Source of the DNA: Phycisphaerae bacterium
GTDB lineage: Bacteria > Planctomycetota > Phycisphaerae > UBA1845 > Fen-1342
Assembly (NCBI GenBank): GCA_050115495.1
Contig: JASFQK010000051.1
Span: forward strand, 1 to 37,273
Length of the DNA stretch: 37,273 nucleotides
Direction of reading: 5' to 3'
The position numbers and the translations under genes are program-made. The first letter of the stretch is position 1, and every line of letters starts with the position of its first letter. This document shows positions 116 through 22,207 of this stretch, piece after piece. The notes beneath the pieces are model-generated. The model saw only the letters and a list, made by a program, of their open reading frames with translations, had not been told where the DNA came from and searched no databases.

Positions 116-373
116 CTACTTCTTCTGCGTCCGTTTCGCCTTCGGCTTGGGCGGGTCGGGGATGATCTCGACTAAGTCACCGAATGTGACATCCAACCCG
201 AGGCAAATCTTCTCAAGCGTGTTGACCGTCGCGTTGTAACCGAGTCGCTTGCCGATGACCTCCAATGTGCCCTTCGCAACACCAGTACGCTCGGCCAGAA
301 TCTGGTACGTCATGCGCTGACCGGTCCGCCGTTTGTAGGCCTGCATCGCCTCTCGGAGCTTTATGGCGACCAT
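116..373 (-). CDS. Cro/C1-type (HTH_26/XRE-like) transcriptional regulator, module 1
   Basis: 85 aa with the HTH pattern MTYQILAERTGVAKGTL...TLEKICLGLDVTFGDLVE and a basic tail. Paralog of 848-1120. Confidence 0.85.
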   Translation of the reverse strand: MVAIKLREAMQAYKRRTGQRMTYQILAERTGVAKGTLEVIGKRLGYNATVNTLEKICLGLDVTFGDLVEIIPDPPKPKAKRTQKK

Positions 374-443: not shown

Positions 444-472
444 TTGACCGCTTACGAAACACATGCTATCTT
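444..472 (+). promoter_or_regulatory. sigma70-type promoter divergent from HTH1
   Basis: TTGACC (444-449), 17 bp spacer, TATCTT (467-472), with an extended -10 TG. Confidence 0.6.
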
Positions 473-532: not shown

Positions 533-595
533 GGATTCGTCTCAGCAGGCAACCGTCAAACCTCAGTCTCAGCGGTGCGGCCGCGTGGCGATACC
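533..595 (+). ncRNA. putative C4/CI-like antisense RNA, module 1 (imperfect)
   Basis: GGCAACCGTCA (548-558) pairs with 675-686 (one bulge, G-U pairs). CGGCCGC (578-584) pairs with 668-674 (one mismatch). Weak closing stem 533-541/587-595. Confidence 0.4.
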
Positions 596-610
596 GTTGT
601 GACGTCTGAT

Positions 611-788
611 CCGGGTGAGTGTCCGCGCTTATCATGCGGGCGCTACCCGGTGCGCGGAGTCGTGTGGGCGACCGTGACGGGTTGTTCACGGCTCTTAGCG
701 CATCGGGTGGCGCCCGTTTCCTTTTGGTGCCATCAGCTTTCGACGTTTCGCCGTCTCCAACGGCGTCGCCACCCCTGCGCGCGAATGT
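611..788 (+). repeat. conserved structured RNA-like element, copy 1 (variable loop 665-686)
   Basis: Direct repeat of 1373-1548 with about 4 substitutions outside the loop. Stems are rich in G-U pairs on the + strand. Confidence 0.9.
637..725 (+). terminator. long terminator-like hairpin with a competing antiterminator stem, copy 1
   Basis: 19-bp stem 637-655/698-716 followed by TTTCCTTTT. A mutually exclusive stem forms between 611-626 and 636-650. Confidence 0.55.
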
Positions 789-851
789 GGGGCGGGCCGT
801 TCCCGCCAATTCCCCCGGTCCACATCCACCGGCGGGCGCGGCCCGCCCTAC
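787..851. repeat. inverted REP doublet (REPIN-like)
   Basis: GTGG-GGCGGGCCGTTCCCGCC (787-807) and inverted GTAG-GGCGGGCCGCGCCCGCC (851-831). The GTAG overlaps the HTH2 stop codon. Confidence 0.7.
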
Positions 852-1120
852 TTCTTCTTCTGCGCGCGTTTTGGCTTCGACTTGGGCTTGGGCGGCTCAT
901 CGATCAGTTCCAGCATGTCACCAGGGGAGGCGTCAAGCGCTTTGCAGATCCTGGCGAGGGTTGCGAGACTCGCATTGTAGTGCGGCCGGCTACCCATGTT
1001 CTGGAGCGTGCCAACTGCCAACCCGGTGCGTTGGGCCAGAATCTCGTACGTCATTCGTTCGCCCGTACGGCGCTTGTAGGCAAGCATGGCTTCTCGGAGC
1101 TTCACGATGATCTGTGCCAT
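848..1120 (-). CDS. Cro/C1-type (HTH_26/XRE-like) transcriptional regulator, module 2
   Basis: 90 aa, MTYEILAQRTGLAVGTL...TLARICKALDASPGDMLE. Clearly homologous to 116-373. Confidence 0.85.
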   Translation of the reverse strand: MAQIIVKLREAMLAYKRRTGERMTYEILAQRTGLAVGTLQNMGSRPHYNASLATLARICKALDASPGDMLELIDEPPKPKSKPKRAQKKK

Positions 1121-1163: not shown

Positions 1164-1191
1164 TTGACAACGTCAGAGTACAGGGTATACT
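1164..1191 (+). promoter_or_regulatory. near-consensus sigma70 promoter divergent from HTH2
   Basis: TTGACA (1164-1169), 16 bp spacer, TATACT (1186-1191). Confidence 0.75.
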
Positions 1192-1293: not shown

Positions 1294-1365
1294 TGCCCTG
1301 GCAGGCAAACCGCTAGGCTGGTCGGGTTGTATGTCCCGACCAGCAATGCCACCGAAGCCAAGGCA
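1294..1365 (+). ncRNA. putative C4/CI-like antisense RNA, module 2
   Basis: Outer stem 1294-1302/1357-1365 and a perfect 10-bp inner hairpin 1317-1326/1335-1344. The two single-stranded arms, 1304-1316 and 1348-1354, together pair with all 20 nt of 1427-1446. Confidence 0.65.
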
Positions 1366-1372
1366 TCCTCGC

Positions 1373-1548
1373 CCGGGTGAGTGTCCGCGCTTATCATGCG
1401 GGCGCTACCCGGTGCGCGGGGTCGTGCGGTGGCTTAGCGGTTTGCCCACGGCTCTTAGCGCATCGGGTGGCGCCCGTTTCCTTTTGGTGCCATCAGCTTC
1501 CAACGTTTCGCCGTCTCCAACGGCGTCACCACCCCTGCGCGCGAATGT
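1373..1548 (+). repeat. conserved structured RNA-like element, copy 2 (variable loop 1427-1446)
   Basis: Direct repeat of 611-788. Confidence 0.9.
1399..1485 (+). terminator. long terminator-like hairpin with a competing antiterminator stem, copy 2
   Basis: 19-bp stem 1399-1417/1458-1476 followed by TTTCCTTTT, upstream of ORF 1621. Confidence 0.55.
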
Positions 1549-1620: not shown

Positions 1621-2217
1621 ATGCTGCAGCCCATCATCACGCACGAGGACGATCGGACGACGTACATCGGCGACCAGGTCCGCTTCACCGATCGACCCAC
1701 CGACGTCTTCCGCTGCCGCATGCAGCAACTCGAAGACATCCACCGCTGGCTCGCCGGCTACTTCCAGGCCGTCGCCATCCTGCTCCAGATCCCCGGCGCC
1801 GCCGACTACCGCCACCAGGACTACGCCAGCGACGACGACCTCTGGGATCTCATCTGGAACCCCGATCCCGACAGCACGCTCAACGTTCTCGCCGCCACGC
1901 TCGAACGCCTCGACGCTGGCGAACTCCTGGCACAGGTTCCCGGCGGCGACGGCTTCAAACGCCGCCCGCTGCCGGTCGAGGCCCGCGTTCACCTCGCTGA
2001 ACGCGACCGCCTGGGTCTGCTCAACGTCGTTGCCGATTGTCTGGACCGCCTGTTGGTCGCGCCGCATATCCCCGGCGAAGCGGAAGCCTGCGGCCTGACG
2101 ACCGAGGACGACCCGCAGCCCACAGGCCGACCCAAGCCCGCCGAATCCCGTGCACCACGCCGGACGCGTTCTGCTCGCCAAAGCGACGTCCGTCGCAGCA
2201 AAGGACAAATACGATGA
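1621..2217 (+). CDS. hypothetical protein
   Basis: 198 aa, GAGGG RBS, host-like codon usage. Contains LNVLAATLERL and LNVVADCLDRLL motifs. Confidence 0.7.
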   Translation: MLQPIITHEDDRTTYIGDQVRFTDRPTDVFRCRMQQLEDIHRWLAGYFQAVAILLQIPGAADYRHQDYASDDDLWDLIWNPDPDSTLNVLAATLERLDAGELLAQVPGGDGFKRRPLPVEARVHLAERDRLGLLNVVADCLDRLLVAPHIPGEAEACGLTTEDDPQPTGRPKPAESRAPRRTRSARQSDVRRSKGQIR

Positions 2218-2243: not shown

Positions 2244-2311
2244 GCAGGGCGAGCCGTGCCCGCCAATCGCGAATCCGTCCGAACGCATCCGACGGGCACG
2301 GCCCGCCCCAC
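2244..2311. repeat. inverted REP doublet (REPIN-like)
   Basis: GCAG-GGCGAGCCGTGCCCGCC (2244-2264) and inverted GTGG-GGCGGGCCGTGCCCGTC (2311-2291). Confidence 0.7.
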
Positions 2312-2385: not shown

Positions 2386-2802
2386 ATGTTTGACGAACAC
2401 ACCCGGAACTACCTGACCACGATGGCGTTCTTCCAGCGACTGCCGGCCGTCCAGATGCAGGGCATCGGCGGCGAGGACGACGAAACGGTGCCGCAGCCGG
2501 CGGCCGACCTCATCCGAGACTGGCGGCGGATGCAGCACCGGAACCTGCCAACGGCCGTGCAGGAGGAACTGGTCCGCTGCGACGACAACACGCTGTTCAA
2601 CGTCGTGGGCCACTGCTTCGACATTCTGCTCCGGCGGATCGTGCCGAAGTACGACTTGCACCGCCAGCGCCGCCGGGAGCAGAAGGCCCGACGGCAGGAG
2701 CGAGCGGGCGCAACGCGCACCAGTGCCCTGGCGACGGCCTTGAGCGGTGCGACCGAGCAGCCCGCCGGATCCGAACCGGCCCTCGCGCCAACCCCGACCT
2801 GA
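2386..2802 (+). CDS. hypothetical protein
   Basis: 138 aa, strong AAGGAG RBS. The motif FNVVGHCFDILL resembles the one in ORF 1621. Confidence 0.7.
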   Translation: MFDEHTRNYLTTMAFFQRLPAVQMQGIGGEDDETVPQPAADLIRDWRRMQHRNLPTAVQEELVRCDDNTLFNVVGHCFDILLRRIVPKYDLHRQRRREQKARRQERAGATRTSALATALSGATEQPAGSEPALAPTPT

Positions 2803-2823
2803 TCCCCCGGATCGCCGAACCCA

Positions 2824-2878
2824 GGCGGGCCGTGCCCAACAGCACCAACGACAAGCCAGCGGGCACGGTCCGCCCTAC
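2824..2878. repeat. inverted REP doublet (REPIN-like)
   Basis: GGCGGGCCGTGCCC (2824-2837) and inverted GTAG-GGCGGACCGTGCCCGC (2878-2859). Confidence 0.65.
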
Positions 2879-3026
2879 CAGTCTCGCGCGGTTCCTGACA
2901 CCCGCCAGGATCTACGGGCCCACAGCGTGTCTCTTTCCTCAGACGAGCACCGCCGGTTTGACACACGAGACCATGCGGCTATCGTGGCCGCACGTGCGCT
3001 CGGCAACCCGCATCAGCGCTGTCCGA

Positions 3027-5247: not shown

Positions 5248-6457
5248 CCCCGCCCGGATAGCAGACGTACCCGTTCAGATCCACCGCCGTCCCACCCCGC
5301 GCCCACGACAGCCCCAGTTCCGCCGGCAACGCCGCCTCGTCGTAACACTTGCGCAGCGCCTCCGCCAGCCCCTCCACCCACACCAGCCGCGCCGCCCCCG
5401 GCACCCGTTCCCGCACCATCGCCGCCGGAAACACTGCCGGCTCCCCCGCCGAATCCTGCGCCCCGTTGACACTGAGCGTTTGCGCGCCAGCCGCCGCCAA
5501 TTGGCAACAGGGCGCCGCACCGCCCGCCACCGCCGCCACGCAATCCCACAGCTTCTGCGTCTGGGGTGTATCGTCCGGCGATCCGTACTCCCGCCGCGTC
5601 CCGTCCTCCAACTCGGCCACGATCGGCGACGATCCGCCCTCAAACGTCACGTACGCCCGCTCGAACTCGCCGCAGAAGATCGGGTCCTGCACGTCGGCGA
5701 CCGCATGCGAGCCGTAGAACAGAATCTCCGCCCCCTCCGCCGTCTCCACCCGCACCGCCGCCGTATCACAATTCTCAATATCATTCGCGCGGTACAGCTC
5801 GGCGGTGACGCGTACCGGCCGCGCACTCGCCTCTACCCGCGACCCGAGCACGTACAGCGCATTGTGCAGATCGTGCGCCATCGCGTTGTTCACGGGGCTA
5901 TCGAGCACCCAATGCCCCCGCCCGTCGCTCTTTCGCCCGGCCCAGTCGTTCCGCCCGTAATACGCCTCATCCCGCGGCCACAGGCACAACGTCCGCCACC
6001 GCCGCGCCCGCCCGAAAACACCGGCGATGACGTCCCGCTTCAACTCCTGAATCGCCCGCGAATACGACCACTGGTACCCGATCGCCACCCAACGCCCGCT
6101 CCGATCGGCGGCCGCCGCCATCTCCGCCACTTCCTGCACCGTCGCCGCCGCCGGCTTCTCGCACAGCACGTAGCTCCCGTGGTGGAGCGCCAGACACGTC
6201 TGCGGGCCATGCTGATGAATCGGCGACGAAATCACCGCCAGGTCCGCCCGCTGCTGGCGATAGAACTCCTCCAGCGTCGCGTACACCGGCACGCGCCGCG
6301 CCCGCAGCTCCTCCAGTCGCCCGCAACGCTCCGGCTCCGGATCAACCGCTCCGACCAGCCGCTGTGTCGGCCGCCCCTGCTCATCTAGCAATCCGCCGAG
6401 ATACACCTCGCCGTAGCCACCCAACCCGACCAGCACGATGGAAACCGCTTCGCTCAT
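5231..6457 (-). CDS. Gfo/Idh/MocA family oxidoreductase
   Basis: N-terminal GLGGYG Rossmann motif, VLCEKP, AHDLH. Confidence 0.92.
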   Translation of the reverse strand: MSEAVSIVLVGLGGYGEVYLGGLLDEQGRPTQRLVGAVDPEPERCGRLEELRARRVPVYATLEEFYRQQRADLAVISSPIHQHGPQTCLALHHGSYVLCEKPAAATVQEVAEMAAAADRSGRWVAIGYQWSYSRAIQELKRDVIAGVFGRARRWRTLCLWPRDEAYYGRNDWAGRKSDGRGHWVLDSPVNNAMAHDLHNALYVLGSRVEASARPVRVTAELYRANDIENCDTAAVRVETAEGAEILFYGSHAVADVQDPIFCGEFERAYVTFEGGSSPIVAELEDGTRREYGSPDDTPQTQKLWDCVAAVAGGAAPCCQLAAAGAQTLSVNGAQDSAGEPAVFPAAMVRERVPGAARLVWVEGLAEALRKCYDEAALPAELGLSWARGGTAVDLNGYVCYPGGVSGRA

Positions 6458-6458
6458 G

Positions 6459-8954
6459 TCACTTCCGCTTGATCGGCCGCTCCATCAGATCCACTTCGAC
6501 GAGCCGCTTGCTTCGCCGCCGATAGCGCAGCGTCTTGATCTCGAACGCCCCGAGCTGCACTTTCTGCTGCACGCCGTCAGACGGCAGCGACACCGTCGTC
6601 TGCCGCGCCCGCCCCGTCGGTTCGAACAGCCGAATGATGAGGTCCGGCCCGTCTTCGGCCTGCTTGAACACGGTCATCTGCACGACCTGGTCGCTCAGCA
6701 CGACGCCCGCCGCCGGCCGCCGCCCTTCGCCCGACGGGAACATCGACAGCGCCTGCGGCTGCTCGTGGTGCGCGAGCGCCTCGCGATCCACCCGCGTCAG
6801 CCGCTCCTGCACAGCACCGCCGCTGAGCCAGAAGTGGAACACGTGCTCACCCTGGTCATGCCGCGGCGTAAACCGATCCTGCTTGACGATCGGCCGCCCC
6901 TTCAGCGCGAACCCCGAATGTGCCGGCGCCCGCAGCAGCGACAACCGCATTTCGCCACCAGCCATGTCCGACCCGTACGTCGCATCCGTGATGCACGTCA
7001 GCGCTGCGTCCTCCGCCGACGACACGACCGCCACCCACTTCTGCGCCACCGCCTCATCGGTCCCCACCGGCAGATCCGCCACACCGTACGCCACCTGCCC
7101 GCGATACGCCGCCTGTTCAAACGGTGTCGGCACCGACAGCTTCAGGATGCGGTCCTTCTCGGTCCAGTGCACGCGCGTCTCGATCTCGATCTCCGTGCCC
7201 TCGCGCGGCAGCTTGTACCGCTGGCACACGCACGAGTGCCCGTGAATCAGCAGCACTTCGACCACGCTCCGCACTGGACCATCCTCGATCACGCGCACCG
7301 GCGCCAGCTTTCCACCTTCCACACCCGCGAACCACGCCGCCTCCGCCGGCGTCATCAGCCGAAACCGCCCCACGACCTGCCGGAAGCTCCGCACCGTCGT
7401 TCCCCACGCGTCCGCGTTATCCCGCACGACGAGCAGCCGCCCCGCCCCGCTCTTCACGTAGTCCCGCCCGTTCGCGCGATACCGTTCGAACAGACCGGTC
7501 CGCGTGTTGATCACCACTTCGAGCGCTGCGGTCTTGAAGCGAATCCGCCCGCCACTCGCCTGCAACTTCGCCGGTGGCTTGGCCGGCAGCATCTTCACCC
7601 GGCAATTAAACCGGTTCATGCAACTCGGCGCCAGCTCCGCCCGAAACACCACGCGCTTGCGATGATCCTCGTTGATATTCGCGTGCTCCTGCTCCGCCTG
7701 CGACGGCAGCGGCGCCCGGCCCGCGTACACCTGCGGCTGGCTGAACTTGCCCGTCTGATGCGGCCACGCCGGCTGAAACTCGCACGCCACCGTCGCCGTC
7801 ACCCGATACGGATGCGGGTTGTACACCAGGATCGGAAACTCGTCCGGCTGCCCCGGCCGCTGCCCGCCACTCAGCGCGAGGAAGCACCGCGTCTTCACCC
7901 GATCCACAATCTCCAGCCCGTGATCGAGCATGCGCACGACGTGCTCTTCCACCGGCGGAATCGAACTGCCCGGCAGCGCATCGTGGAACTCGCTCCGCAA
8001 CAGGTCCCGCTGCGCCTCCGCCAACTCCGCCCGCGGATACGGCACCAGCCCCTGCATCGCCGCCGTCGTCGCCATCTTCTCGACGGCGTACAGCTCGTTT
8101 TCCAGCTTCCGATGCCGCCGCTTCACGCGCATCATCGACGTGTAGCAGCCCACCGCCCACGGATTCAGATCCCCTTTGTGCTGCGGCAACGGCGCCTCCC
8201 GGCGCCGAGCGTCCTCGAAGTACCGTTCCGGCGTCGAGTGAAACAAGTCGACGTCGCGTCGCTCGCGGCCCAGCTTGATCAGCTCCGCCGCATCGATCCG
8301 CGCCGGCCCGCCCCCGTGATTGCCGACGCCATACAGCACCAATCCGCACGCGACGTGCGCATTATCCGCCAGCCAGCCGCAGACTCGCTCCCGTGCCTTT
8401 CCCGGCGGCGAGTTGTAATGCGTCTCCGCCCGCCGCGCCAGCACCTCCGACCCGTCGTAGCCGACCCAACGGAACGCTCCCGCCGGCAGTGGCAGATCTT
8501 CCGCCCCCGGCCGGCAGAACAGGTACGCGTCGTACCCGCTCCGCGCCAGGATCTGCGCCAACCCGCGCGTATGCCCAAAGGCGTCCAGACTGGCGGCTAC
8601 GGTCGGCTCAACGCCGAACTTCTCCGCGAAGTACCGCCGACCGACCAGGATCTGCCGCACGAACGACTCGCCGCTCGGCATGTTGCAGTCCGGCTGGAGG
8701 TACCACCCGCCCATGACGTGCCAGCGTCCCCGCCGCACCAACTGCCGAATCTCGCGGAACAGCGCCGGATCGTGCTCCTCGATCCACTCGTAGTACATGA
8801 CCTCGTTGCGGTTGAAGATGAACGCCGGAAACTCCCGGCAAACGGCGACCGCCGCCCGCGCCATAGCCAGCGCCTCGGCCAGCCCCTCGGGCCACTCCCA
8901 CAGCCAAACCGGATCGAGATGCGAGTTACAAACGAGGTGCACGCTGTTCTTCAT
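6459..8954 (-). CDS. glycoside hydrolase family 38 alpha-mannosidase
   Basis: SHLDPVWLW, PDCNMPSGES, DAFGH (nucleophile), YGVGNHGGGP, EFHDALPGSSI. Confidence 0.93.
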   Translation of the reverse strand: MKNSVHLVCNSHLDPVWLWEWPEGLAEALAMARAAVAVCREFPAFIFNRNEVMYYEWIEEHDPALFREIRQLVRRGRWHVMGGWYLQPDCNMPSGESFVRQILVGRRYFAEKFGVEPTVAASLDAFGHTRGLAQILARSGYDAYLFCRPGAEDLPLPAGAFRWVGYDGSEVLARRAETHYNSPPGKARERVCGWLADNAHVACGLVLYGVGNHGGGPARIDAAELIKLGRERRDVDLFHSTPERYFEDARRREAPLPQHKGDLNPWAVGCYTSMMRVKRRHRKLENELYAVEKMATTAAMQGLVPYPRAELAEAQRDLLRSEFHDALPGSSIPPVEEHVVRMLDHGLEIVDRVKTRCFLALSGGQRPGQPDEFPILVYNPHPYRVTATVACEFQPAWPHQTGKFSQPQVYAGRAPLPSQAEQEHANINEDHRKRVVFRAELAPSCMNRFNCRVKMLPAKPPAKLQASGGRIRFKTAALEVVINTRTGLFERYRANGRDYVKSGAGRLLVVRDNADAWGTTVRSFRQVVGRFRLMTPAEAAWFAGVEGGKLAPVRVIEDGPVRSVVEVLLIHGHSCVCQRYKLPREGTEIEIETRVHWTEKDRILKLSVPTPFEQAAYRGQVAYGVADLPVGTDEAVAQKWVAVVSSAEDAALTCITDATYGSDMAGGEMRLSLLRAPAHSGFALKGRPIVKQDRFTPRHDQGEHVFHFWLSGGAVQERLTRVDREALAHHEQPQALSMFPSGEGRRPAAGVVLSDQVVQMTVFKQAEDGPDLIIRLFEPTGRARQTTVSLPSDGVQQKVQLGAFEIKTLRYRRRSKRLVEVDLMERPIKRK

Positions 8955-9445
8955 ACGCTCTCAACCCTCATCCCCGTCTCATCTTCACCGATCACCGTGA
9001 ACCCGTATCAACCAACCTCGTCGCGCACAGGCTGTACCCGCCCCCGCCCCGCCCGTCAATATCGCCGATCCCCCACTGTGGCACCGGATTGCATCCGGTG
9101 CGTCATCACCGCCTCGCCCGCTCATCCCCCGTGCCGAACGTCTTCGCACGGGCACCCCGCCCCGGCTGCCCGTGTCTCTTCGCCTTCTGAACCCGCCTCG
9201 TCTCTCGCATCGCCGCGCCCGACTGCCAGTGTGGCACCTGCCAATGGCTGGTGATCCCCTCCGCTGCGGAGCCCCGCACGATCCACTCGCGGCCCTCCCG
9301 CCCCGCATCATCCGCTCCCCTCTCCAGCCCAAACCTACCTTTGCCCCCATCGATGCGCCTATGTAGACTGCAAGCATGCTCCACAGGCGCGCGCCGACCA
9401 CCCGGACACCTCACACAACACCCAGGCCACAGAGGGGTACGCCAC

Positions 9446-10045
9446 ATGAAGGAAGACATCCTCGAACAGCTCGTTGACGATTACTTGCAGCTCCAGGGCT
9501 ACTTCACGCAGCACAACCTGAAGTTCCGACCTCGGCCGGACCACCCGGACTTCGACTCCCAACACGACTCGAACCACAGCGACATCGACGTTCTCGGGTA
9601 TCACCCGAGACTCCGCGGTCCGCGGCGCGTCATGGTGGTAAGCTGCAAGAGCTGGCAGACCGGCTTCCCCGTGTGTGCGATCATCGATGAGTTGGAACAT
9701 AACAAGGTGCGCTCCGGCCGCCCGACGTGGAAGGCCTTTCGCGAACTGGTGTGTCCGAAGTGGAGCGAGGCCCTCATCGCCGCGGTGGAGTCCGCGACAG
9801 GCTGCCGGCAATTCACATACGTGACCGCCGCAACGAAGATCACGGGCGATCGGAAGGAATGGGAAGCCTATCCGCCGTTCCGCGAGGCGATGCGCGGCAA
9901 TCCCATCAAGCTCCTGTCCCTGCGCGAGATGCTGACCGCGTTCACGGCCTCACTGAGCACAACGGTGGCCAACTCGGAACTCGGCCGGACATTGCAGTTG
10001 CTGAAGGCCGCGGGGTACGTCGACGCTGACCATTCCCCCACATGA
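9446..10045 (+). CDS. PD-(D/E)XK restriction-endonuclease-like protein
   Basis: 199 aa from MKEDILEQLV, with a GAGGGG RBS. E...DIDV...SCK pattern. Confidence 0.65.
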   Translation: MKEDILEQLVDDYLQLQGYFTQHNLKFRPRPDHPDFDSQHDSNHSDIDVLGYHPRLRGPRRVMVVSCKSWQTGFPVCAIIDELEHNKVRSGRPTWKAFRELVCPKWSEALIAAVESATGCRQFTYVTAATKITGDRKEWEAYPPFREAMRGNPIKLLSLREMLTAFTASLSTTVANSELGRTLQLLKAAGYVDADHSPT

Positions 10046-10072
10046 CACCAGCGGAGAAGACACCCGACTCGC

Positions 10073-10492
10073 TCACCCCCCCGCCGACTTCCGCCTCTGC
10101 TCCAACACCCAGTTCACCGCCTCGCGCAGCGTCTTCGCATCGATGGGCTTCTCCAGGAACATGTCCACCGACATCGCGTCCGGGCATACCTCCTGCCCGT
10201 ACTCCATGCCCACCGACTGCCCGATCGCCGAAATCAGAATGAGCGGGATCTTCTTCAGGTGCCGGTCTCGCCGCATCTCACACGCGATTTGCAGCCCCTC
10301 CGACGGGTGCGACAGCATGATGTCCAGGAGAACCAGATCGGGCGGCTCGTGGCGTATCGCCTCCAGCCCCGCGGCCCCCGTCTCGTAGCAGACGACGGCG
10401 AACCCCACGGGCTCAAGGATCATCTGGACGGCCAGGTGCATGTCCAGGTCGTCGTCGATGAGCAAAACTCGCGTCGGCCTCGAGGCGTCCAC
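10073..10492 (-). CDS. single-domain response regulator (receiver)
   Basis: LLIDDD, PDLVLLDIML, ILISA and FLEKP receiver motifs. Confidence 0.9.
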   Translation of the reverse strand: MDASRPTRVLLIDDDLDMHLAVQMILEPVGFAVVCYETGAAGLEAIRHEPPDLVLLDIMLSHPSEGLQIACEMRRDRHLKKIPLILISAIGQSVGMEYGQEVCPDAMSVDMFLEKPIDAKTLREAVNWVLEQRRKSAGG

Positions 10493-10615
10493 ACCAACCC
10501 GCCTTTCGACGCACAGTCTAGCCGCCGGCTAAGAGAGGGTACAGACTCCTCACACCGCACGGCTCCTGCGCCCGGGCCTCTCGGCTCGGAGCCGGCCTCC
10601 GCTCTCAACGGGCGG

Positions 10616-11062
10616 TCAGTCCTCGGCCGCCAGTTGCACGAGGGCCCCTTGCAGCCGCCGGCTGAGCGTACCCGCCAGCACCTTGAGCAGATGGTACCCC
10701 AGCGAGTGGTCGCGCTCGCAGAGCTCACGAATCCCGCGGGCCTCGATGCGCACCACCGTACCCGGCTCGCGCGGGACCGCGGTCGCCGTGCACTCGTACG
10801 GGGCGACCAGCGAGGACCAGCCGATGAGGTCGCCGGCCACGACCGTGTCCACCACGCGGCCCTCGTCGATATGCGCCTGGTAGACGATGTCGACCTGGCC
10901 GCTGCGGAGGATGAACAAGGCCGGCGCCTCGTCACCCTCGGCGAAGAGCGGCTCACCCACGTTGAGCGAGCGTTCTTCGGTGATCGCCGCCACCGCCTTC
11001 AGGCTCTCCGCGCCGACGCCGGCGAAGTACGGAAATGAGCGCAACACCTCGATGGATACCAT
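10616..11062 (-). CDS. cyclic nucleotide-binding domain protein (Crp-like sensor without HTH)
   Basis: LFAEGDEA...ILRSGQVDI...GDLIGWSSL; GGAGG RBS. Confidence 0.88.
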   Translation of the reverse strand: MVSIEVLRSFPYFAGVGAESLKAVAAITEERSLNVGEPLFAEGDEAPALFILRSGQVDIVYQAHIDEGRVVDTVVAGDLIGWSSLVAPYECTATAVPREPGTVVRIEARGIRELCERDHSLGYHLLKVLAGTLSRRLQGALVQLAAED

Positions 11063-11067
11063 GGTCC

Positions 11068-11556
11068 TCACCTCCACTCGGTCAGGAGAGTCTGCACGAG
11101 CTCAGCGGCACGCGGCACACCAGCCTCCACCGCGGGCGTGCACTGCTCGCCAAACGTCTCCACGTCGGCGGCCTCGATGGCAACAATGCGAATGTCGCCG
11201 GCCGCCGGCAGTTCCGCTCCGGCCCGCCGCCCAAATTCCAGGGCGGTCCACAGATCCATGTCATGTACCGAATCGCCGTGCTGCGTCGGCCCTGCGGTGT
11301 CCAGAACGCACACCGTGCCCGGCGGAGCCCCCGTGCGCTGGGCATCGATGATTATAACCCGCTCGTAGCCGACGATGCGCTCCATAAGCCGCAACCCGCC
11401 CCAATAATCCTCCGCCAATTCCAGGTCCGGCCGGCCAGCCAGCACCGGCCGCAACTGCTCCAGCACGCGCAGCCCAACAGCGTCGTCGGTCAACAGGGGA
11501 TTCCCCAGACCGAGCACGAGCGTTCTCGCGGCCGGATGTTGCGTAATCGCCGACAT
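11068..11556 (-). CDS. hydrogenase maturation protease
   Basis: LGLGNPLLTDDAVG, IIIDA, SVHD; directly downstream of the large subunit. Confidence 0.92.
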   Translation of the reverse strand: MSAITQHPAARTLVLGLGNPLLTDDAVGLRVLEQLRPVLAGRPDLELAEDYWGGLRLMERIVGYERVIIIDAQRTGAPPGTVCVLDTAGPTQHGDSVHDMDLWTALEFGRRAGAELPAAGDIRIVAIEAADVETFGEQCTPAVEAGVPRAAELVQTLLTEWR

Positions 11557-11567
11557 GATGTGTCCGG

Positions 11568-13049
11568 TTACGGCTGCGTCTCGCCGCGGGTGATCGTCCG
11601 CAGCACTTGTCCGTCGGGATCGCGCAGGACGACGGTGAGTGGCATCTTCCCCGGCAGGCAATGCGTCGCGCAGCCGAAGCAGGGGTCGTACGCCCGGAAC
11701 GCCATCTCGATGCGGTTGAGCAGGCCCTCCGTGACCGTCGTCCCCTTGCGGATGAGCGCCTTCGCGGCCTCCTTGACGGAGAGGTTGATCGGGGCGTTGT
11801 TGTTCGTCGTGCCGACGATGAGGTTCACGCGGGTCAGTATGCCGCGCTCGTCACTCCAGTAGTGGTGCGTCAGCGTGCCGCGCGGGGCTTCGACGCAACC
11901 GACGCCTTCCTCGGGCGTGGCCGTCGGCAGGACGCGGTATTCCTTCCCCGTGATTTCCGGGTCAGTGGCCAACTCGACCCACCGCTCGGCGGAGTAGAGC
12001 AGCTCGATCAGCCGGGCCCAGTGCGTGGCCAGCGTGTGGTGCACCGGCTTGCCACCGAGCGTCTCGTACATCCGCTCGTATTCCTTCTGCGCCAGCGGCG
12101 TGGCCATGCCGTCGGCGGCGTTGAGACGCGAGAGCGGCGTGGCCTTGTACACGCCGGAATCCGCGCCGTCGACGAAACCCTTCCAGCCGACCTTCTTCAG
12201 ATACGGGAACTTCAGGTAGGACCAGGGTTCGACGCGCTCGGCGATGTAGTCGCGGTAGTCCTTCGCGGCGTATTTCGCGTGCTCGCGGCCGTCCGGCCCG
12301 ACCACGCGGACCCGGCCATCGTAGAAGTTGACGCGGTTGTTCGCGTCGACCAGGCCCATGTTGTACGTGCGGTGCGTGTACGCATCACTCGTGATGAGCT
12401 GCACATAGTCGCTGTTACCCAGCACGATCTGGTTGAACAGCTCCAGCGAGAATTTGCCGAACTCGATCGCATCGCGGCCGAGGCGCTCGATCTCGATTCG
12501 CTGCTCCTCGGTGATGCCGCGGCTGACGCCGCCGGGCAGGCCCCAGTTCGGGTGCACCTTCCGGCCGCCGATCATCTCGATCAAATTGTGGCCGTCGCGG
12601 CGCATCTTGAGGACCTTGCCGGCGATCTCCATGCCGACCTTCTGAATGACGCCGAGGATGTTGCGCTCCTCCTTCGGCGCGTCCGGCCCCATGACGAAGT
12701 CGGGCCCGCCCAGGGCGTAGAAGTGCGTCGTGTGGTCCGTGGCGAAGAAGATGCAGTAGAACATCTCGCGCAGCTTCTTCGCTGTCGGCGGCGGATCGAC
12801 CCGGAACAGCGCGTCCAGGGCCTTCGTGCCGGCGATGTGGTGCGCCTCCGGACAAACGCCGCAGATGCGCGACGTCAGGTTCGGCATGTCCTCCGCGAGG
12901 CGGCCGACGCAGAAACGCTCGAAGCCGCGCAGCTCGGGGATCTGGAGGTACGCCTCGGCCACGTCGCCCTTCGGTGTCAGGAAGATGTCGATCTTGCCGT
13001 GGCCTTCGAGCCGCGTGATCGGGTCGATGCTGATGCGCTGGGTTGTCAT
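11568..13049 (-). CDS. mvhA: [NiFe]-hydrogenase large subunit, group 3c (MvhA-like)
   Basis: IDPITRLEGHG, L1 motif RICGVCPEAH, EAPRG, L2 motif YDPCFGCATH with a C-terminal extension; clustered with hdrA and mvhD. Confidence 0.9.
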   Translation of the reverse strand: MTTQRISIDPITRLEGHGKIDIFLTPKGDVAEAYLQIPELRGFERFCVGRLAEDMPNLTSRICGVCPEAHHIAGTKALDALFRVDPPPTAKKLREMFYCIFFATDHTTHFYALGGPDFVMGPDAPKEERNILGVIQKVGMEIAGKVLKMRRDGHNLIEMIGGRKVHPNWGLPGGVSRGITEEQRIEIERLGRDAIEFGKFSLELFNQIVLGNSDYVQLITSDAYTHRTYNMGLVDANNRVNFYDGRVRVVGPDGREHAKYAAKDYRDYIAERVEPWSYLKFPYLKKVGWKGFVDGADSGVYKATPLSRLNAADGMATPLAQKEYERMYETLGGKPVHHTLATHWARLIELLYSAERWVELATDPEITGKEYRVLPTATPEEGVGCVEAPRGTLTHHYWSDERGILTRVNLIVGTTNNNAPINLSVKEAAKALIRKGTTVTEGLLNRIEMAFRAYDPCFGCATHCLPGKMPLTVVLRDPDGQVLRTITRGETQP

Positions 13050-13064
13050 CGGCGAATGCTCCAC

Positions 13065-14078
13065 CTAGGCCTGAGAAGCGGCCTTGGGCCGCGGCAGTTC
13101 GTGACGTTCGGCGTCCGGCACCAGGGCCGCCCGCCGCAGCAGGCTGCTGGCCAGACTGAACCGGTAGAAGCTCCCGACCGGGTCGGGAATGCCCTCGCGG
13201 ATGATGCGTTCGATCTCTTCGGGATCGGTGGCGTCGATCACCGAGGCCAAGGCGGTGATGAGCCGCGCCCCGAAGTCCTCGACGCCGGCGTTCGGCCCGT
13301 AGCAGCCGATGCACGGCGAATTCACCTGCGGGCAGCGGGCCCCACAACCGGCGCGCGTCGCCGGCCCGCAGCACAGCAGCCCCTGTTCCAGCAGGCAGAT
13401 GTCCGGATCGGGGATGACCTCCCACGTCCGCTTGAACGCCTTGATCTTCTTTTCCGTCCGCGTCCGCGGGCACTCGTCGCAGCAGGTCGTCGTCGGCCCG
13501 ATCACCGACCCCGCCGGCGGCAGCTTGCCCTCCAGGATCGCCACCACCGCGTCCCAGATGCACGACGCCTCCGGCGGGCACCCCGGCAGGTAATAATCGA
13601 CCGGCACCGTCTGCCCCAGCGTCCGCACCGTGTCGTAGAACACCGGCAGCGACAGGTGATACCCGTTGACCTTCGTCTCCGGCTGCGGCACGGCGTTGCT
13701 GCGGTTGTCCGTCGAGGAGTTGTCCAGGAAGACCGTCTCGAAGATCTCGTCGCGGCAGGTCAGGTTGGCCAGCCCCGGGATGCAGCCCTCGCTGGCGCAC
13801 GAGCCGAACGCCACCAGGACCTTCGACTTCTGCCGCAGCAGCTTCGCCATGTACTCCTGCTCGCTGTTGCGGATGCTGCCGTTGAACAGGCACACGTCGA
13901 CGTACTGGTCGGGCCAGTGCTCGACGTCGCGTACCTTGGTGTCCATGATGCACGGACACAGGACGATGTCGAACGCGGCCGCCACGTCGAGGATCTTCTC
14001 GTTCAGGGCGAGGATCGAGATCTCGCACCCGCCGCACGACGCCGCCCAGTAGATCGCCAGCTTGCCCTTGTCGCTCAT
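13065..14078 (-). CDS. mvhG: [NiFe]-hydrogenase small subunit (MvhG-like)
   Basis: SCGGC, AFGSCA, PGCPP, CLLEQGLLCCGPATRAGC...CIGCYGP. Start at MSDKGK after GGAGG. Confidence 0.9.
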   Translation of the reverse strand: MSDKGKLAIYWAASCGGCEISILALNEKILDVAAAFDIVLCPCIMDTKVRDVEHWPDQYVDVCLFNGSIRNSEQEYMAKLLRQKSKVLVAFGSCASEGCIPGLANLTCRDEIFETVFLDNSSTDNRSNAVPQPETKVNGYHLSLPVFYDTVRTLGQTVPVDYYLPGCPPEASCIWDAVVAILEGKLPPAGSVIGPTTTCCDECPRTRTEKKIKAFKRTWEVIPDPDICLLEQGLLCCGPATRAGCGARCPQVNSPCIGCYGPNAGVEDFGARLITALASVIDATDPEEIERIIREGIPDPVGSFYRFSLASSLLRRAALVPDAERHELPRPKAASQA

Positions 14079-14572
14079 CGTCCGACCTCCATGGCGCTCT
14101 GGTGCTCTTGCAGGATCTTCTCGACGTCGTCGAGGTGGCCGCTCTCGCCGGCCCAGTTGCTCGACCAGTGCAGCGGGCCGAGCGTGCGCACGTCCTCGAC
14201 CATGTCGTCGATGGCCTCGGCCAGTTGCAGCGCCTCGGCCGCCGAGGCCCACACCAGCCGCACGCGCCGCTCGCTGATACCCAGCGCCCGCAACATGTGC
14301 TGGAGCATCGTGTAGCGGCGCATGGTCTTGTAGTTCTGCTCGATGTAGTGGCACTCGCCCGGGTGACAGCCGGCGATGAGCACGCCGTCCGCCCCCAGCG
14401 AAAGCGCCTTGAGCACGAACGACGGATCGACCCGCCCGCTGCACATCAGCCGCACCACGCGCACGTTCGGCGAATGCTTGATGCGGGCCGTACCGGCTCC
14501 GTCGGCCGCCCGGTACGAGCACCAGTTACAGAAGAAACCGACAATTTTCGGCTCGAAGATCTCGCGCTGCAT
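14075..14572 (-). CDS. mvhD: hydrogenase iron-sulfur subunit MvhD/FlpD
   Basis: FCNWCSY, MCSGRVDP, GCHPGECHY, WASAAE. Confidence 0.93.
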   Translation of the reverse strand: MQREIFEPKIVGFFCNWCSYRAADGAGTARIKHSPNVRVVRLMCSGRVDPSFVLKALSLGADGVLIAGCHPGECHYIEQNYKTMRRYTMLQHMLRALGISERRVRLVWASAAEALQLAEAIDDMVEDVRTLGPLHWSSNWAGESGHLDDVEKILQEHQSAMEVGR

Positions 14573-14582
14573 CCCGTCACTC

Positions 14583-16613
14583 CTACGACGCGGTAGGTTC
14601 CAGGCTCGGCTCGCCGGCGACCCCGGCCGCCCGCCCGTTGCCGTTGGCGTCCCACAGCAATCCCGCGATTTCCGCGTCCACCTGGTTGTTGTCGAAATGC
14701 GCCCCGGCGATGGCCCCCGCCGGACACGCCGCCACGCACGTGCCGCAGCCCTTGCACAGCGCCGCGTTCACCTTGCTGACCTTCTCGTCCACCAGGTAGT
14801 CGATGGCGTTGAACGGACAGAGGTTGTTACAGATGCGGCAACCCGAGCAGTTGTCGGCGTTGATCGACGCCACCACCGGCTCGATCATCACCGTCCCTTT
14901 CGTGATCATGCCCTGCACCCGTGCCGCCGCCGCCGCGCCCTGCGACACCGAGTCGGGAATGTCCTTCGGTCCATGGCACGCGCCGGCGATGTAGATGCCG
15001 TCGGTCATGGTCGCCACCGGGTCGAGCTTCGCGTGCCGCTCGATGAACCACCCGGCCATGCTGCACGAGATGCCCACCTTCAGGCCGGTCTCCCGGGCGT
15101 CACGCCGCGGCTCGATCGCCCCCATCAGCACGACCATGTCCACCGGGATGCGCCGCTGCTTGCCCAGCAACGTATCCTCGACCTGCACGACGAGCTTGCC
15201 CTCTTCCTGCGGCGTGCGGGCCACGTCCGTGATCTCCGCCACTTTGCCGCGCACGAAGAGCATGCCCTCGTCCAGCAGCCGCTGATAGAACTCCTCGTAG
15301 TCCTTCTTGTTCGGCCGCATGTCGATGTAGCAGGCGTGCACCCGGGCGTTCGTCTTCTCCAACACCAGGTGCCCCAGCTTCAACGACAGCATGCAGCAAA
15401 TGCCCGAGCAGTACGTGTTGTAGCGCTGATCGCGGCTGCCCACGCAATGCACGATGCACACCGACTCCGGCGGCGTCACGCCGTCACGCAGCACGATCCG
15501 CCCGCCCGTCGGCCCCGACGCGTTGCACATCCGCTCGAATTCGAGGCTGGTGAAGACGTTCGCCAGCTTCCCGTAGCCGTACTGCGGAATCCGCCCACAA
15601 TCGAACAGGTCCCACCCCGTCGCCAGGATGATGTTGCCCACGTCGACTTCGAGGATCTCATCCTGCTGCTCGAAGTCGATCGCCCCCGTCGGGCACAGCT
15701 TCTCGCACGCCCGGCAGCGCTGCCGCTCGAACCAGATGCACGAGGCCCGGTCGATCACCGGAATCTTCGGCACCGCCTGCGGGAACGGCGTGTAGATGGA
15801 CTTGCGATAGCCCATCCCCGCCTCGAACACGTCGTCCACCACCTTGCGCGGACACTTCTCGATGCACAGCCCGCAGCCCGTGCACTTGTCCTCGCGCACA
15901 TAGCGGGCCTTCCGCCGAATGCGGGCCCGGAAGTTGCCGACCGAGCCGGACACCTCCTCCAGCTCCGAATGGGTCAGCAGCGTGATGTGCTCGTGCTGGC
16001 CGACCTCGGACATCTTCGGCGTGAGAATGCACGCGGCGCAGTCCAGCGTCGGGAACGTCTTGTCGTACTGGGCCATGTGCCCGCCGATGCTCGGCTCCCG
16101 CTCCACCAGGTAGACCGGGTAGCCGGCGTCGGCCAGCTCCAGTGCCGCCTGAATACCGGCGATGCCCCCGCCGACGACCAGCGTGTGCGGGTTCACCTTG
16201 ACCGGCATCGGCTCGAGCGCCCGGTGGTACTGCACGCGGGCCACCGCCCCGGCCACCAGCGCCTTCACCTTCTCCGTCGCCACCCGCTTGTCCCGCGTCA
16301 CCCACGACACGTGCTCGCGGATGTTCGCCATTTGCAGGAGGAACGGGTTCAGGCCGGCGTTCGCACACGCCCGCCGGAACGTCCTCTCGTGCAGGTGCGG
16401 CGAGCAGGCGGCGATGACGACGCGGGTCAGCCCTTCCTTGCGGATGTCGTCCTCAATGAGCGCCTGGCCCAGCGACGAGCACATGAACTTGTACTCACGC
16501 GAGACCGTCACCCCGTCGAGCGTGCCCGCCCAGCGGGCCACCTCCTCGACGTCGACGGTACCGGCGATGTTGCTGCCGCAGTGGCACACGTATACGCCAA
16601 CACGCTCGGCCAT
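14583..16613 (-). CDS. hdrA: heterodisulfide reductase subunit A (bifurcating flavoprotein)
   Basis: GVYVCHCGSNIAG, VVGGGIAG, DKTFPTLDCAACILTP, HCVGSRD and four ferredoxin CxxCxxC motifs. Confidence 0.95.
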   Translation of the reverse strand: MAERVGVYVCHCGSNIAGTVDVEEVARWAGTLDGVTVSREYKFMCSSLGQALIEDDIRKEGLTRVVIAACSPHLHERTFRRACANAGLNPFLLQMANIREHVSWVTRDKRVATEKVKALVAGAVARVQYHRALEPMPVKVNPHTLVVGGGIAGIQAALELADAGYPVYLVEREPSIGGHMAQYDKTFPTLDCAACILTPKMSEVGQHEHITLLTHSELEEVSGSVGNFRARIRRKARYVREDKCTGCGLCIEKCPRKVVDDVFEAGMGYRKSIYTPFPQAVPKIPVIDRASCIWFERQRCRACEKLCPTGAIDFEQQDEILEVDVGNIILATGWDLFDCGRIPQYGYGKLANVFTSLEFERMCNASGPTGGRIVLRDGVTPPESVCIVHCVGSRDQRYNTYCSGICCMLSLKLGHLVLEKTNARVHACYIDMRPNKKDYEEFYQRLLDEGMLFVRGKVAEITDVARTPQEEGKLVVQVEDTLLGKQRRIPVDMVVLMGAIEPRRDARETGLKVGISCSMAGWFIERHAKLDPVATMTDGIYIAGACHGPKDIPDSVSQGAAAAARVQGMITKGTVMIEPVVASINADNCSGCRICNNLCPFNAIDYLVDEKVSKVNAALCKGCGTCVAACPAGAIAGAHFDNNQVDAEIAGLLWDANGNGRAAGVAGEPSLEPTAS

Positions 16614-16624
16614 GAGCGGGCCTC

Positions 16625-18673: not shown

Positions 18674-18698
18674 GCCGATCCGTCCTCAGATCCGAAGG

Positions 18699-19667
18699 CT
18701 ACGTTGTCAGTTTCTCCGCCAGGGCGGGCATCAGTTCGAGCGCGTTGCAGGTCGCCCCGAAGTGCGCCACGTCGAAGATGGGCGCCTTGGCGTCCGTGTT
18801 GACGGCGAGGATCAGGTCGGCCTCGGGCACACCTTCGAGGTGCTCCGGAGCCCCGCTGATGCCGATCGCCAGGTACAGCTTCGGCTTGACCTGCTTGCCC
18901 GATTTGCCGACCAACCGCGTCGTCGGCAGCCAGCCCTGGTCCACGACCGGCCGCGAGCCGCAGACGACGCCCCCCAGCGCCTCCGCCAGCTTCTCGGCCA
19001 CGGTGAGGTTGTCCTGGTTCTGAATGCCGCGACCGACCGAGACGAGTACCGGCTGCTTCGCGATATCCACATCCGTCGCCGGCGGCTCGATGTACTGCTG
19101 GAACTTCGTCCGCACCTGGTCGAGGCCGGCGGGAGCGGCGACGCTCTCCACCGCGGGCGCCTGGCCGCCGCGGCCGTCGTCGGGCTTGTAGCCGCCGGGC
19201 ATCACCGTCGCCAGACATGTCGGCTCCGGCAGCGGCCCCGTGGCGATCAGCTTCCCACCACAGGTCGGCGCCGAGTACTGCACCCCGCCGTCTGCCACGG
19301 TGAACGTCCGGCACGACGTGGCCACCGGCACGTGCAGACGCTGCGCCAGCCCGCAGGCCAGATCGGTCCCCATCGCCGTGTGCCCGAAGAGCACCACGCG
19401 CGGCTTGTGCTGTTCGAGCATGCCGCTCAGGACGGCCAGATAGGCCTCAGGATTGAAGTCCGCCAGGCTCGCATCCCCGACGCACACGACGCGGTTGGCC
19501 TTGCCCAATTCGCCGGCCAGTTTCTGCACGTCATGGCCGATCAGCAGCGCCGTCACCTTCGTCTTCAAGCCGTCGGCAATCTGCCGAGCGGCGGCGAGCA
19601 TCGTGAACGTGATGTCCGTAACGCTACCCCGCAACGTTTCCACTACAACGCACACTTCACCGCACAT
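18699..19667 (-). CDS. etfA: electron transfer flavoprotein subunit alpha
   Basis: VSVGRG, GSRPVVD, VGKSG, YLAIGISGAPEH, AVNTDAKAPIF. Confidence 0.93.
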   Translation of the reverse strand: MCGEVCVVVETLRGSVTDITFTMLAAARQIADGLKTKVTALLIGHDVQKLAGELGKANRVVCVGDASLADFNPEAYLAVLSGMLEQHKPRVVLFGHTAMGTDLACGLAQRLHVPVATSCRTFTVADGGVQYSAPTCGGKLIATGPLPEPTCLATVMPGGYKPDDGRGGQAPAVESVAAPAGLDQVRTKFQQYIEPPATDVDIAKQPVLVSVGRGIQNQDNLTVAEKLAEALGGVVCGSRPVVDQGWLPTTRLVGKSGKQVKPKLYLAIGISGAPEHLEGVPEADLILAVNTDAKAPIFDVAHFGATCNALELMPALAEKLTT

Positions 19668-19711
19668 GGCATTCCCTCGCACGGGCCGCAGCGCCCGCGA
19701 TCCTCGTTTCG

Positions 19712-20482: not shown

Positions 20483-20549
20483 TGTGGACTCCTTGCGAGC
20501 TTTCACTCCCCAGCCGCCAACGATCAACCAGATTCCGCTCGGTCTGTCC

Positions 20550-20583
20550 GGCTGATGGCTGATGGCTGAAGGCTGACGGCTTA
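20550..20583. repeat. intergenic heptamer tandem repeat (GGCTGAN)
   Basis: GGCTGAT GGCTGAT GGCTGAA GGCTGAC GGCTTA. Confidence 0.75.
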
Positions 20584-21774: not shown

Positions 21775-22207
21775 GGTTGGGCACCTCATGGCGACAAGCG
21801 CACACTCAGACTGGGTACGCCCCGGCGGGCGTACGAACGATGGCGACGAATGACGTTGAACTGCCGAATGCCGCGCAGCCACCAGCCACGCCGGCGGACG
21901 CGGGCCCGACCTCCACGGCCACCCGTGGAGACCGAACTCACGACCGTCCCGCGCGAGCCACACGGCCCGCGTCAGGCGAACGTCTTCGCCGCCTCTGCTA
22001 TGGCACTACGACGCACCGCCCATCCGACGGGCGGCTACGTTTGGACACTGCGCGAAAGCCCGCCGTGGAACGCGGGCCGGCTCCGCGCCGCAGCCGCGCT
22101 TCGCGGCCCGGTGCGGAACACCTGCAACTGAACTGAACAAGCCCACAAAGGCACGACTCGGAAGCGCCGCTCCCTGACGAAATGCTGATTGGACGCGCTT
22201 CGACCCG

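Follow-up and report, generated by a model that had tools for sequence, protein, structure and literature searches.

What does a bacterial leader RNA control when one of its variable segments is complementary to a divided site further upstream in the same leader? The question is raised by a contig of a Phycisphaerae bacterium, 37,273 nt long and analysed as a whole (the window), which carries two related modules of this kind near its left end. The answer favoured here, with a probability of roughly 0.65, is that the variable segment (the key) and the divided site (the lock) form a transcription attenuator that regulates itself and uses a private RNA code, with the key RNA acting in trans.

Layout of the lock and key in the window

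In module 2 (Table 1), the key pairs gap-free with both arms of the lock, as the original prediction had it and at the same coordinates; two arms covering 20 of 20 key bases were reached in 3 of 1000 dinucleotide-shuffled leaders, which gives the chance level. The arms were also correctly placed around a 10-bp hairpin (1317–1344) inside an outer stem, which forms eight of nine pairs with one C–A mismatch, and the minimum-energy fold of 1195–1625 includes the lock–key pairing. The paired interval was said to coincide exactly with the segment that differs between the window's two copies: this holds for the block 1427–1446, but one more substitution lies outside it, at 1420. Mistaken, by contrast, was the description of the key as an open variable loop of 20 nt, as it is the bulged upper stem and 4–6-nt tip of an 80-nt hairpin (1398–1477; −62.7 kcal/mol, z −6.9) that is followed by TTTCCTTTT. 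Past this U tract, at 1487–1540, lie further hairpins able to pair with strand C in the read-through state; these are present in the copies of G000 and G194 and absent from those of G265 and G150.

Table 1. Features of the two modules at the left end of the window, in order of position
Feature	Position	Strand	Remark
Module 1 divergent Cro/C1-type HTH gene	116..373	-	PF13443, E 4e-9
Module 1 promoter P1, TTGACC-17-TATCTT	444..472	+	match to consensus only
Module 1 lock arm 1, orphan	548..558	+	complementary to the L061 key rather than to its own
Module 1 terminator hairpin and U tract, key 665-686	636..725	+	predicted always to terminate
Palindrome, GTAG/GTGG-tagged	787..851		between module 1 and the end of the second HTH gene; probable bidirectional terminator or REP-like repeat
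Module 2 divergent Cro/C1-type HTH gene	848..1120	-	PF13443, E 1e-11
Module 2 promoter P1, TTGACA-16-TATACT	1164..1191	+	11/12 consensus
Lock outer stem, 5' strand	1294..1302	+	family consensus TGTCTTGGC
Lock arm 1	1304..1316	+	pairs with the 3' part of the key; 13 bp, one G-U
Spacer hairpin between the arms	1317..1344	+	10 bp here; length and sequence vary among copies
Lock arm 2	1348..1354	+	pairs with the 5' part of the key; 7 bp
Lock outer stem, 3' strand	1357..1365	+	GCCAAGRCA
Antiterminator strand A	1367..1389	+	pairs with 1397-1420; TCGCCC at 1369-1374
-10-like hexamer TATCAT in the antiterminator loop	1392..1397	+	17 nt 3' of TCGCCC; putative role
Long terminator hairpin	about 1398..1477	+	5' strand B 1398-1420; 3' strand C ends at 1476
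Key, variable upper stem and tip of the terminator hairpin	1427..1446	+	CGGTGGCTTAGCGGTTTGCC
Apical hexamer TTAGCG of the window key	1434..1439	+	family form TTGACG
U tract TTTCCTTTT	1477..1485	+	immediately 3' of the terminator stem
ORF A, novel helical protein	1621..2217	+	downstream of the RNA; gene predicted to be guarded by the switch
Palindrome like 787-851	2246..2311
Second downstream ORF	2386..2802	+	one short motif in common with ORF A (by eye; repeat D14)
Third palindrome	2822..2879		probable right module end; presumed boundary

Module 1 had been read as a case of compensatory covariation, its different loop pairing with its own different leader. Its lock, however, binds its own key at only −1.6 kcal/mol and the key of L061, a copy in another genome, at −21.5 kcal/mol (−0.2 and −18.3 kcal/mol after opening costs). 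Compared with L061, module 1 is short of about 19 nt between two CCGG repeats, a stretch that held an outer-stem strand and TCGCCC, and it is without a downstream ORF A; the 3' half of its key resembles the key of L161, which has a fitting arm of its own. Module 1 is a decayed, chimeric relic. Further mismatched elements are L013 and L022, both in the window's genome, and L054.

A multi-copy family and its pairing code

The RNA scaffold occurs in 15 copies in the window's genome, each with its own key and most with a divergent Cro/C1-type HTH gene and a sigma70-like promoter. In a typical copy, TGTCTTGGC and arm 1 are followed by a variable hairpin, then by arm 2 and GCCAAGRCA, and finally by the constant scaffold bearing its own key. 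Identity among these copies is 0.96–0.97 for strands B and C, 0.63 for the keys, and 0.50 for the locks. Many of them lie at contig ends, where the assembly is interrupted by the repeated genes downstream.

Like mobile DNA, the family is multi-copy and patchy as well as narrow in range, and it is sampled from metagenome-assembled genomes (MAGs), where absence is uncertain. A search with the HEPN-fold gene found 15 of 279 genomes of the order; a covariance model of the RNA gave as many as 14 matches in a single genome among five chosen from these hits and was matched in 4 of 151 genomes in an even draw of the order, in none of 150 other genomes of the phylum, and in none of five genomes of the same genus. 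An exact pattern found 18 loci in GTDB contigs, which belong to Phycisphaerae, to unclassified MAGs, and in one case to a Dehalococcoidia MAG, and none in viral contigs, and a looser one found 87 metagenome stretches, 80 of them among the matches listed. RNA BLAST in 100 relatives gave two marginal matches only, and the whole element had no match in phage and plasmid records. In the window, no relevant Rfam family reached gathering score, with miRNA-hairpin noise as the only output, and neither the window nor 48 loci contain a tRNA. No published account of this RNA was located in literature that lay largely outside subscription journals, and the supplementary motif tables of comparative screens could hold it.

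Some individual loci deserve mention. Two elements with different keys share one metagenome contig, about 9 kb apart (L168 and L169), as the window's two modules share theirs. The MAG titled Dehalococcoidia holds a full element with an ORF A close to the window's (L109:2450–2591), which may reflect either cross-phylum transfer or a binning error. In L025 and L026 (G265 and G095), the divergent HTH gene, promoter, ORF A, and ORF B are present without lock or key RNA between them; the cassette thus also exists without the RNA switch.

Two sets of elements were compared. Set 1 holds 40 genome elements, of which 38 were used; set 2 derives from 98 loci (GTDB contigs and the listed metagenome stretches), from which 7 non-elements, 23 duplicate keys, and 3 cut leaders were dropped to leave 65. 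Together they comprise 103 elements with 90 distinct central keys, and as these elements are mutually related, permutation counts overstate significance. The proposal of a lock-and-key RNA–RNA code is strongly supported by the comparison of cognate with swapped pairs that had been suggested as its check: cognate lock and key bind at −18.2 kcal/mol and swapped ones at −6.2 kcal/mol in set 1 (0 of 100,000 permutations), and the values are −17.0 and −6.4 kcal/mol in the independent set 2 (0 of 20,000). The cognate partner is the best one in 28 of 38 rows of set 1 and in only 32 of 65 rows of set 2 (among the top three in 51 of 65); recurrence of key classes is part of the reason.

Covariation was counted position by position. 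For arm 1, elements were anchored solely on the shared core, independently of the tested positions (65 of 103 could be so anchored); 348 of 390 cells at six flanking positions pair, compared with 243 ± 7 for shuffled partners, and these positions show up to four Watson–Crick types each. Rigid anchors gave a marginal result for arm 2 (225 versus 200 ± 8, maximum 230), where the register slips, and without a fixed register a run of at least 7 was found in 89 of 103 elements, against a mean of 23 and a maximum of 36. Lock–key covariation as such is therefore true at the level of the family, although module 1 is a broken copy, and these sequence comparisons show that a cognate lock–key code is common to the family. 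The key core is TTGACG in 57 of 103 elements, and the key tip begins with a YUNR-type pattern in 87 of 103, a start that has a U-turn role. Pairs of keys at least 90% alike were found neither among co-resident keys (0 of 105, 0 of 36, and 0 of 36 pairs) nor among keys of different genomes (0 of 523), which are as dissimilar as co-resident ones; key divergence thus does not establish selection against cross-talk.

A predicted terminator switch and proposed action in trans

The original prediction did not say what is under the control of this code. The key forms the tip of an intrinsic-terminator hairpin, and a bound lock is predicted to favour a rival antiterminator. Strand B (1398–1420) pairs alternatively with strand A upstream or strand C downstream. 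In the terminator (B:C), 97.8% of cells are paired and 15 pairs show double changes versus 4.8, in an alignment fitted to this structure, with plus-strand G–U pairs frequent in the helix; the antiterminator (A:B) is 95.7% paired with only three double changes and hence conserved with little covariation. A U tract (at least 6 T in 8 nt) is found in 34 of 38 elements of set 1 and 50 of 65 of set 2, and is retained even where the sequence beyond it diverges or is unrelated. This alignment evidence shows a terminator hairpin with a U tract to be conserved across the family.

Partition-function folding of intact full leaders makes the terminator dominant in 22 of 38 elements, whereas it dominates in 37 of 38 when the lock arms are blocked, and in all 38 when the lock is deleted or the keys are swapped; in the window copy, the terminator rises from 0.00 to 0.98. 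In truncated transcripts, the lock–key pairing is formed in 36 of 38 elements immediately after key emergence, and in 34 of 38 when the transcript is nine bases short of the complete stem, so that the read-through fold comes first. Since the terminator wins in 22 of 38 full leaders at equilibrium, read-through needs kinetic trapping in many copies. These computations make a terminator/antiterminator switch in cis highly probable. Leader-peptide attenuation, on the other hand, does not resemble this family, in which a short ORF of any kind with a ribosome-binding site is present in just 24 of 103 leaders, with no conserved peptide.

The proposed mechanism runs as follows. According to the folding, and with the pairing backed by covariation, the lock would be made first and the emerging key would pair with both of its arms in cis; strand B would then stay in the antiterminator, the terminator would not form, and ORFs A and B would be transcribed. 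Were the lock already occupied, the key is computed to zip into the long hairpin ahead of the U tract, and transcription would stop. We infer the source of the key RNA, its action in trans, and the biological purpose: the occupier would be a short RNA of the key hairpin, derived either from an internal promoter, P2, or from terminated P1 transcripts, and pairing would begin at the U-turn-type tip, with specificity from the bases beneath it. Lacking its own key RNA, as in a new cell or upon decay of the key, each copy would express ORFs A and B in a burst and would then shut itself off, and differing codes would be needed for co-resident copies to avoid mutual silencing.

Trans binding stronger than −5 kcal/mol after opening costs was computed for 93 of 103 cognate and 84 of 515 swapped pairs, with topology ignored, and for 12 of 15 cognate and 20 of 210 swapped pairs in the window's genome; co-folding of the whole folded hairpin without pseudoknots gave −5.0 kcal/mol for cognate and −3.7 kcal/mol for swapped pairs, which is weak and unspecific. 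The family keys vary in the bases below the tip, the same place as the specificity bases of engineered loop–loop attenuators, in which, according to the text available from PMC3753616, a common TTGGCG loop is combined with orthogonality from the bases below. A TTGGCG-like hexaloop with specificity from under-loop bases and interior loops is likewise a feature of antisense attenuators (pT181, pIP501, and pCF10) and plasmid loop–loop antisense systems (pMU720, R1, and ColIb-P9), in the available parts of PMC3753616 and, for pCF10, PMC13401043. Excerpts of PMC4825925 and PMC10111431 describe P4 CI RNA as terminating transcription by pairing with sites on its own transcript; such trans termination by a stable RNA has computed support here, from folding and binding energies.

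A possible source of the key RNA lies in the loop of the antiterminator, where a TANNNT hexamer with free middle positions is found in 36 of 38 elements of set 1 and all 65 of set 2 (101 of 103); the search pattern for set 2 excluded this region, and set 2 alone has 12 different hexamers. The hexamer 17 nt past a TCGCCC-type anchor, chosen without a search for TA..T, fits TANNNT in 93 of 97 anchored elements, and seven bases beyond the hexamer a C is followed by G or A in 103 of 103. Such a combination is typical of a sigma70 −10 box with its start site. In the window, judging by this pattern, TATCAT may be the internal promoter P2, with a predicted start near 1404, for a key RNA without the lock; alternatively it may, by analogy, act as a sigma-dependent pause, long enough for a trans key to bind, or it may be a cleavage site. 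The predicted transcript from 1404 is without the bottom 6 bp of the terminator, so that poor termination is expected by the classical rule, and TCGCCC makes a poor −35 and is under a pairing constraint that alone could conserve it. In L063:1501–1646 and L076:1501–1643, 4–6 nt are inserted between the −10-like hexamer and strand B, and an internal transcript could therefore include the full terminator base there. A search for sigma70-type patterns found a plus-strand promoter upstream in 62 of 93 elements and a minus-strand one, as for a countertranscript, in 1 of 93. A single-stranded-DNA promoter and a leftward promoter with TTGACG as its −35 were considered and rejected, with no conserved −10 seen by eye at the right distance.

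Every covariation result fits pairing in cis equally well, and the lock–key pairing could be an internal antiterminator set by polymerase speed, by a pause at the −10-like element, or by a protein (HTH, ORF A, or ORF B), with codes drifting by compensatory change. Such an attenuator working in cis only would suit the weak trans binding of the whole hairpin, and precedents are at hand in what is accessible of the literature: a −10 repeat can provoke a sigma70 pause and sigma70 can load onto elongating polymerase (PMC5001585, PMC4604602), and the zipper-type attenuator of pLS20 reads through by default (PMC13401043). It is nevertheless the less likely account by a wide step, as it leaves unexplained the conserved outer stem holding the arms open (at least 7 bp in 94 of 103 elements, a raw count with no control), the U-turn-type tip, and the confinement of divergence to the recognition segments. 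The polarity could also be reversed, with an mRNA from P2 stopping at the key hairpin and a lock RNA from the HTH-controlled P1 activating in trans by opening it, after the logic of IsrK or small transcription-activating RNAs. Binding energies are symmetrical, the −10-like element lies just 5' of the hairpin, and the short IsrK isoform activates the long one in trans in the portion of PMC4825925 available. P1 transcripts are, however, predicted to read through in cis regardless, the P1 elements are near consensus, and strand A lies upstream of P2 and is thus unable to act on the P2 transcript, which together render this polarity improbable.

Both remaining accounts are more improbable still. 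The original prediction had itself offered the alternative of a programmable guide in a fixed scaffold, masked by the leader, and the key might accordingly guide a protein such as the HEPN-fold ORF B or sense foreign RNA. The scaffold is indeed fixed around a variable segment of 20–23 nt, 18 of the 30 elements with sufficient sequence have a HEPN-fold gene after them, and several nearby genes have a defence-like character (AbiTii; DarT with a macro domain). Unlike in CRISPR-like or bridge-RNA-like systems, however, the key has a fixed core and recurs, the window's key together with its own lock in four metagenome copies, and acquiring a new guide would mean writing the split lock that matches it simultaneously. 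The suggested search for other matches to the loops also went against a guide: keys of the window's genome have no more off-element genomic matches than shuffled keys, the window key has no exact match in viral contigs, and the element is absent from phage and plasmid records, in which the host's phages are poorly sampled. Nor is the complementarity at all likely to be a DNA-level by-product, whether of template switching across the spacer hairpin or of single-stranded DNA structure for movement. The element is multi-copy and patchy and sits between REP-like palindromes, and rigid anchors over both arms count 25 G–U against 31 A–C, a figure distorted by the register slips of arm 2; by contrast, positions 1–5 of arm 1 show 10 G–U/U–G cells and 3 A–C, plus-strand G–U pairs are frequent in the terminator helix, promoter, U tract, and gene order agree on one direction of transcription, and the strict palindrome pattern was found at none of six Y1 transposase loci.

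Cassette genes, related attenuators, and significance

The self-regulating attenuator would form part of a cassette of about 2 kb, in the order HTH ← P1 → lock, antiterminator, key/terminator, ORF A, and HEPN-fold ORF B. Among elements outside the window's genome with enough sequence, 60 of 80 have the divergent HTH gene, 49 of 52 have ORF A, and 18 of 30 have ORF B; the window copy is without ORF B. ORF A has 45 close homologues and a confident helical model, with no Pfam, PHROG, or PADLOC match at E < 0.05, no usable Atlas match, no fold match (best Z 5.6), and none in the viral fold search.

The modelled fold of ORF B is HEPN-like. Its top VIA match (2hsb) has Z 10.5, rmsd 3.7, and 119 aligned residues, in a range (Z below about 13) that helical bundles may reach generically; HEPN or HEPN-like entries make up most of the top 19 rows, the best Foldseek E is 0.045, and Abi_C clusters are the lead at 0.89. 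It shares with the Abi_C/AbiJ HEPN toxins an ExR motif in the first helix but differs from them in having SxKGSH in place of RxxxxH, with K134, G135, and H137 invariant, and in having no Pfam, PHROGs, or PADLOC match; motif hits in P0001–P0068 are SxxxxH 68 times and RxxxxH once. The catalytic Arg is thus replaced and RNase activity is putative, and HEPN families without the Arg exist, as noted in the accessible text of PMC3710099. Distant relatives of ORF B (P0136–P0256) are mostly 250–400 aa long and combine an N-terminal domain with the same Ser-for-Arg HEPN-like domain; 40 of them were scanned with no meaningful Pfam match, and on sequence grounds they appear to be an unnamed AbiJ-like family.

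Among the 76 of 161 candidate neighbour ORFs scanned were AbiTii, DarT with a macro domain, a Zeta-like ATPase, DUF4062, DUF3800, DUF4365, and TPR proteins; none was an integrase or a transposase. GTAG-type palindromes often border modules, and in the window GTAG/GTGG-tagged palindromes of the GGGCGGGCCGTGCCCGCC type (95–113, 787–851, 2246–2311, and 2822–2879) divide the cassette parts; the half palindrome at 95–113 may mark a third module beyond the contig start. The genome has 49 strict palindrome matches, 6 of them within 2.5 kb of an RNA copy, and several palindromes lie on contig C65 by related patterns; the strict pattern was absent from all six Y1 transposase loci. No mobility gene and no clean empty site were found for the cassette, and in same-genus genomes the flanking orthologues are present without the module, with synteny broken. 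Elsewhere in the window, a DUF4276 and AAA_21 ATPase pair, common as a defence or toxin–antitoxin-like pair, lies at 34868–36731 on the minus strand, and 12 long ORFs scanned in the approximately 17 kb from 5480 to 22136, some possibly wrong-frame picks, had no Pfam match. Near the copy on C55, two ORFs of similar size (about 425 aa; L020:6548–7825 and L020:12389–13666) were noted, of which the one scanned had no Pfam match.

Attenuation driven by RNA is a known principle; what is new here is a set of copy-specific lock–key codes within one family. The family would work like P4 CI or a pT181-type attenuator, yet belongs to neither by membership features. With P4 CI (seqA/seqB/seqC) and P1/P7 C4 it shares a regulator in the leader and a complementary site upstream in the same transcript. 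C4 RNA has the shape of a cloverleaf, whereas this family has one hairpin and its key is the tip of the intrinsic terminator itself. Rfam models separate them as well (C4 is RF01695): C4, c4-type, and isrK had no match at gathering score in the window, none at E ≤ 10 in 400–1700, and none at E ≤ 1 in six homologous loci. A downstream site of the seqC or a2b2 type is also lacking, as the cognate site downstream of the key scored −20.6 kcal/mol and shuffled partners −20.7 kcal/mol (93 elements, 190 nt). Nor is there a phage, satellite, or integrase context: integrase, primase, and ash/icd/ant were sought, with no viral contigs or phage records found, no such Pfam in 76 of 161 neighbour ORFs, and no PHROG for ORF A or B. 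Finally, 15 differently coded copies occupy one chromosome. In the known systems, according to excerpts of PMC4825925, PMC10111431, and PMC8198154, a small RNA encoded in the leader pairs with the upstream site and causes premature termination before genes that include a harmful one.

From the antisense attenuators of pT181, pIP501, and pCF10 the family would take an antiterminator and an intrinsic terminator that exclude one another ahead of the first gene (computed here, with weak covariation of the antiterminator) and, as predicted, default read-through with an RNA-induced switch to termination. Its regulator, unlike theirs, is no countertranscript, judging by the sigma70-type pattern (minus strand in 1 of 93 elements), and the complement is a split, two-arm site on the same strand; lock and key are separate, unlike overlapping sense and antisense genes, and both must therefore mutate in step. 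The available part of PMC4825925 has a short terminated isoform of Gifsy-1 IsrK working in trans on the long isoform of its locus, which is similar, but IsrK activates translation, whereas termination is predicted here, and no sequence or model match links the two. The zipper-type cATT of pLS20 resembles the family in its long imperfect hairpin, near-equal terminator and antiterminator energies, and default read-through; it is, however, single-copy, precedes a conjugation operon, and belongs to Gram-positive plasmids, and no variable cognate code is described for it in the accessible portion of PMC13401043. The part of PMC8708921 available holds no RNA-pairing mechanism. Likenesses to retrons, hammerhead, H/ACA, T-box, and attC elements were set aside, with no RT or conserved core seen.

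This structured RNA family is missing from Rfam and constitutes an unusually large natural record of co-evolving RNA–RNA recognition, with 90 keys in 103 elements. If the attenuator model is true, one bacterium runs about a dozen orthogonal RNA attenuators in parallel; synthetic biology, in the available text of PMC3753616 (2013), noted a dearth of natural orthogonal attenuators and reached seven by engineering. The family makes testable how specificity is encoded beneath a shared U-turn loop and how paralogous mobile cassettes escape mutual silencing, and, as lock and key are separate sequences on the same strand, the way in which they come to change together is itself a question of interest. 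A more far-reaching interpretation, offered tentatively and with the odds somewhat against it, is that these are small selfish cassettes with RNA-only self-recognition, in which the terminator hairpin is the regulator, a sigma70 −10 hidden in the antiterminator loop makes or times it, lock and key are rewritten jointly to let 10–15 orthogonal circuits share a chromosome, and recombination within the constant scaffold gives rise to mismatched, permanently silent copies such as module 1. Were this so, ORF A and the HEPN-fold protein would be produced in a burst only while their own key is missing.
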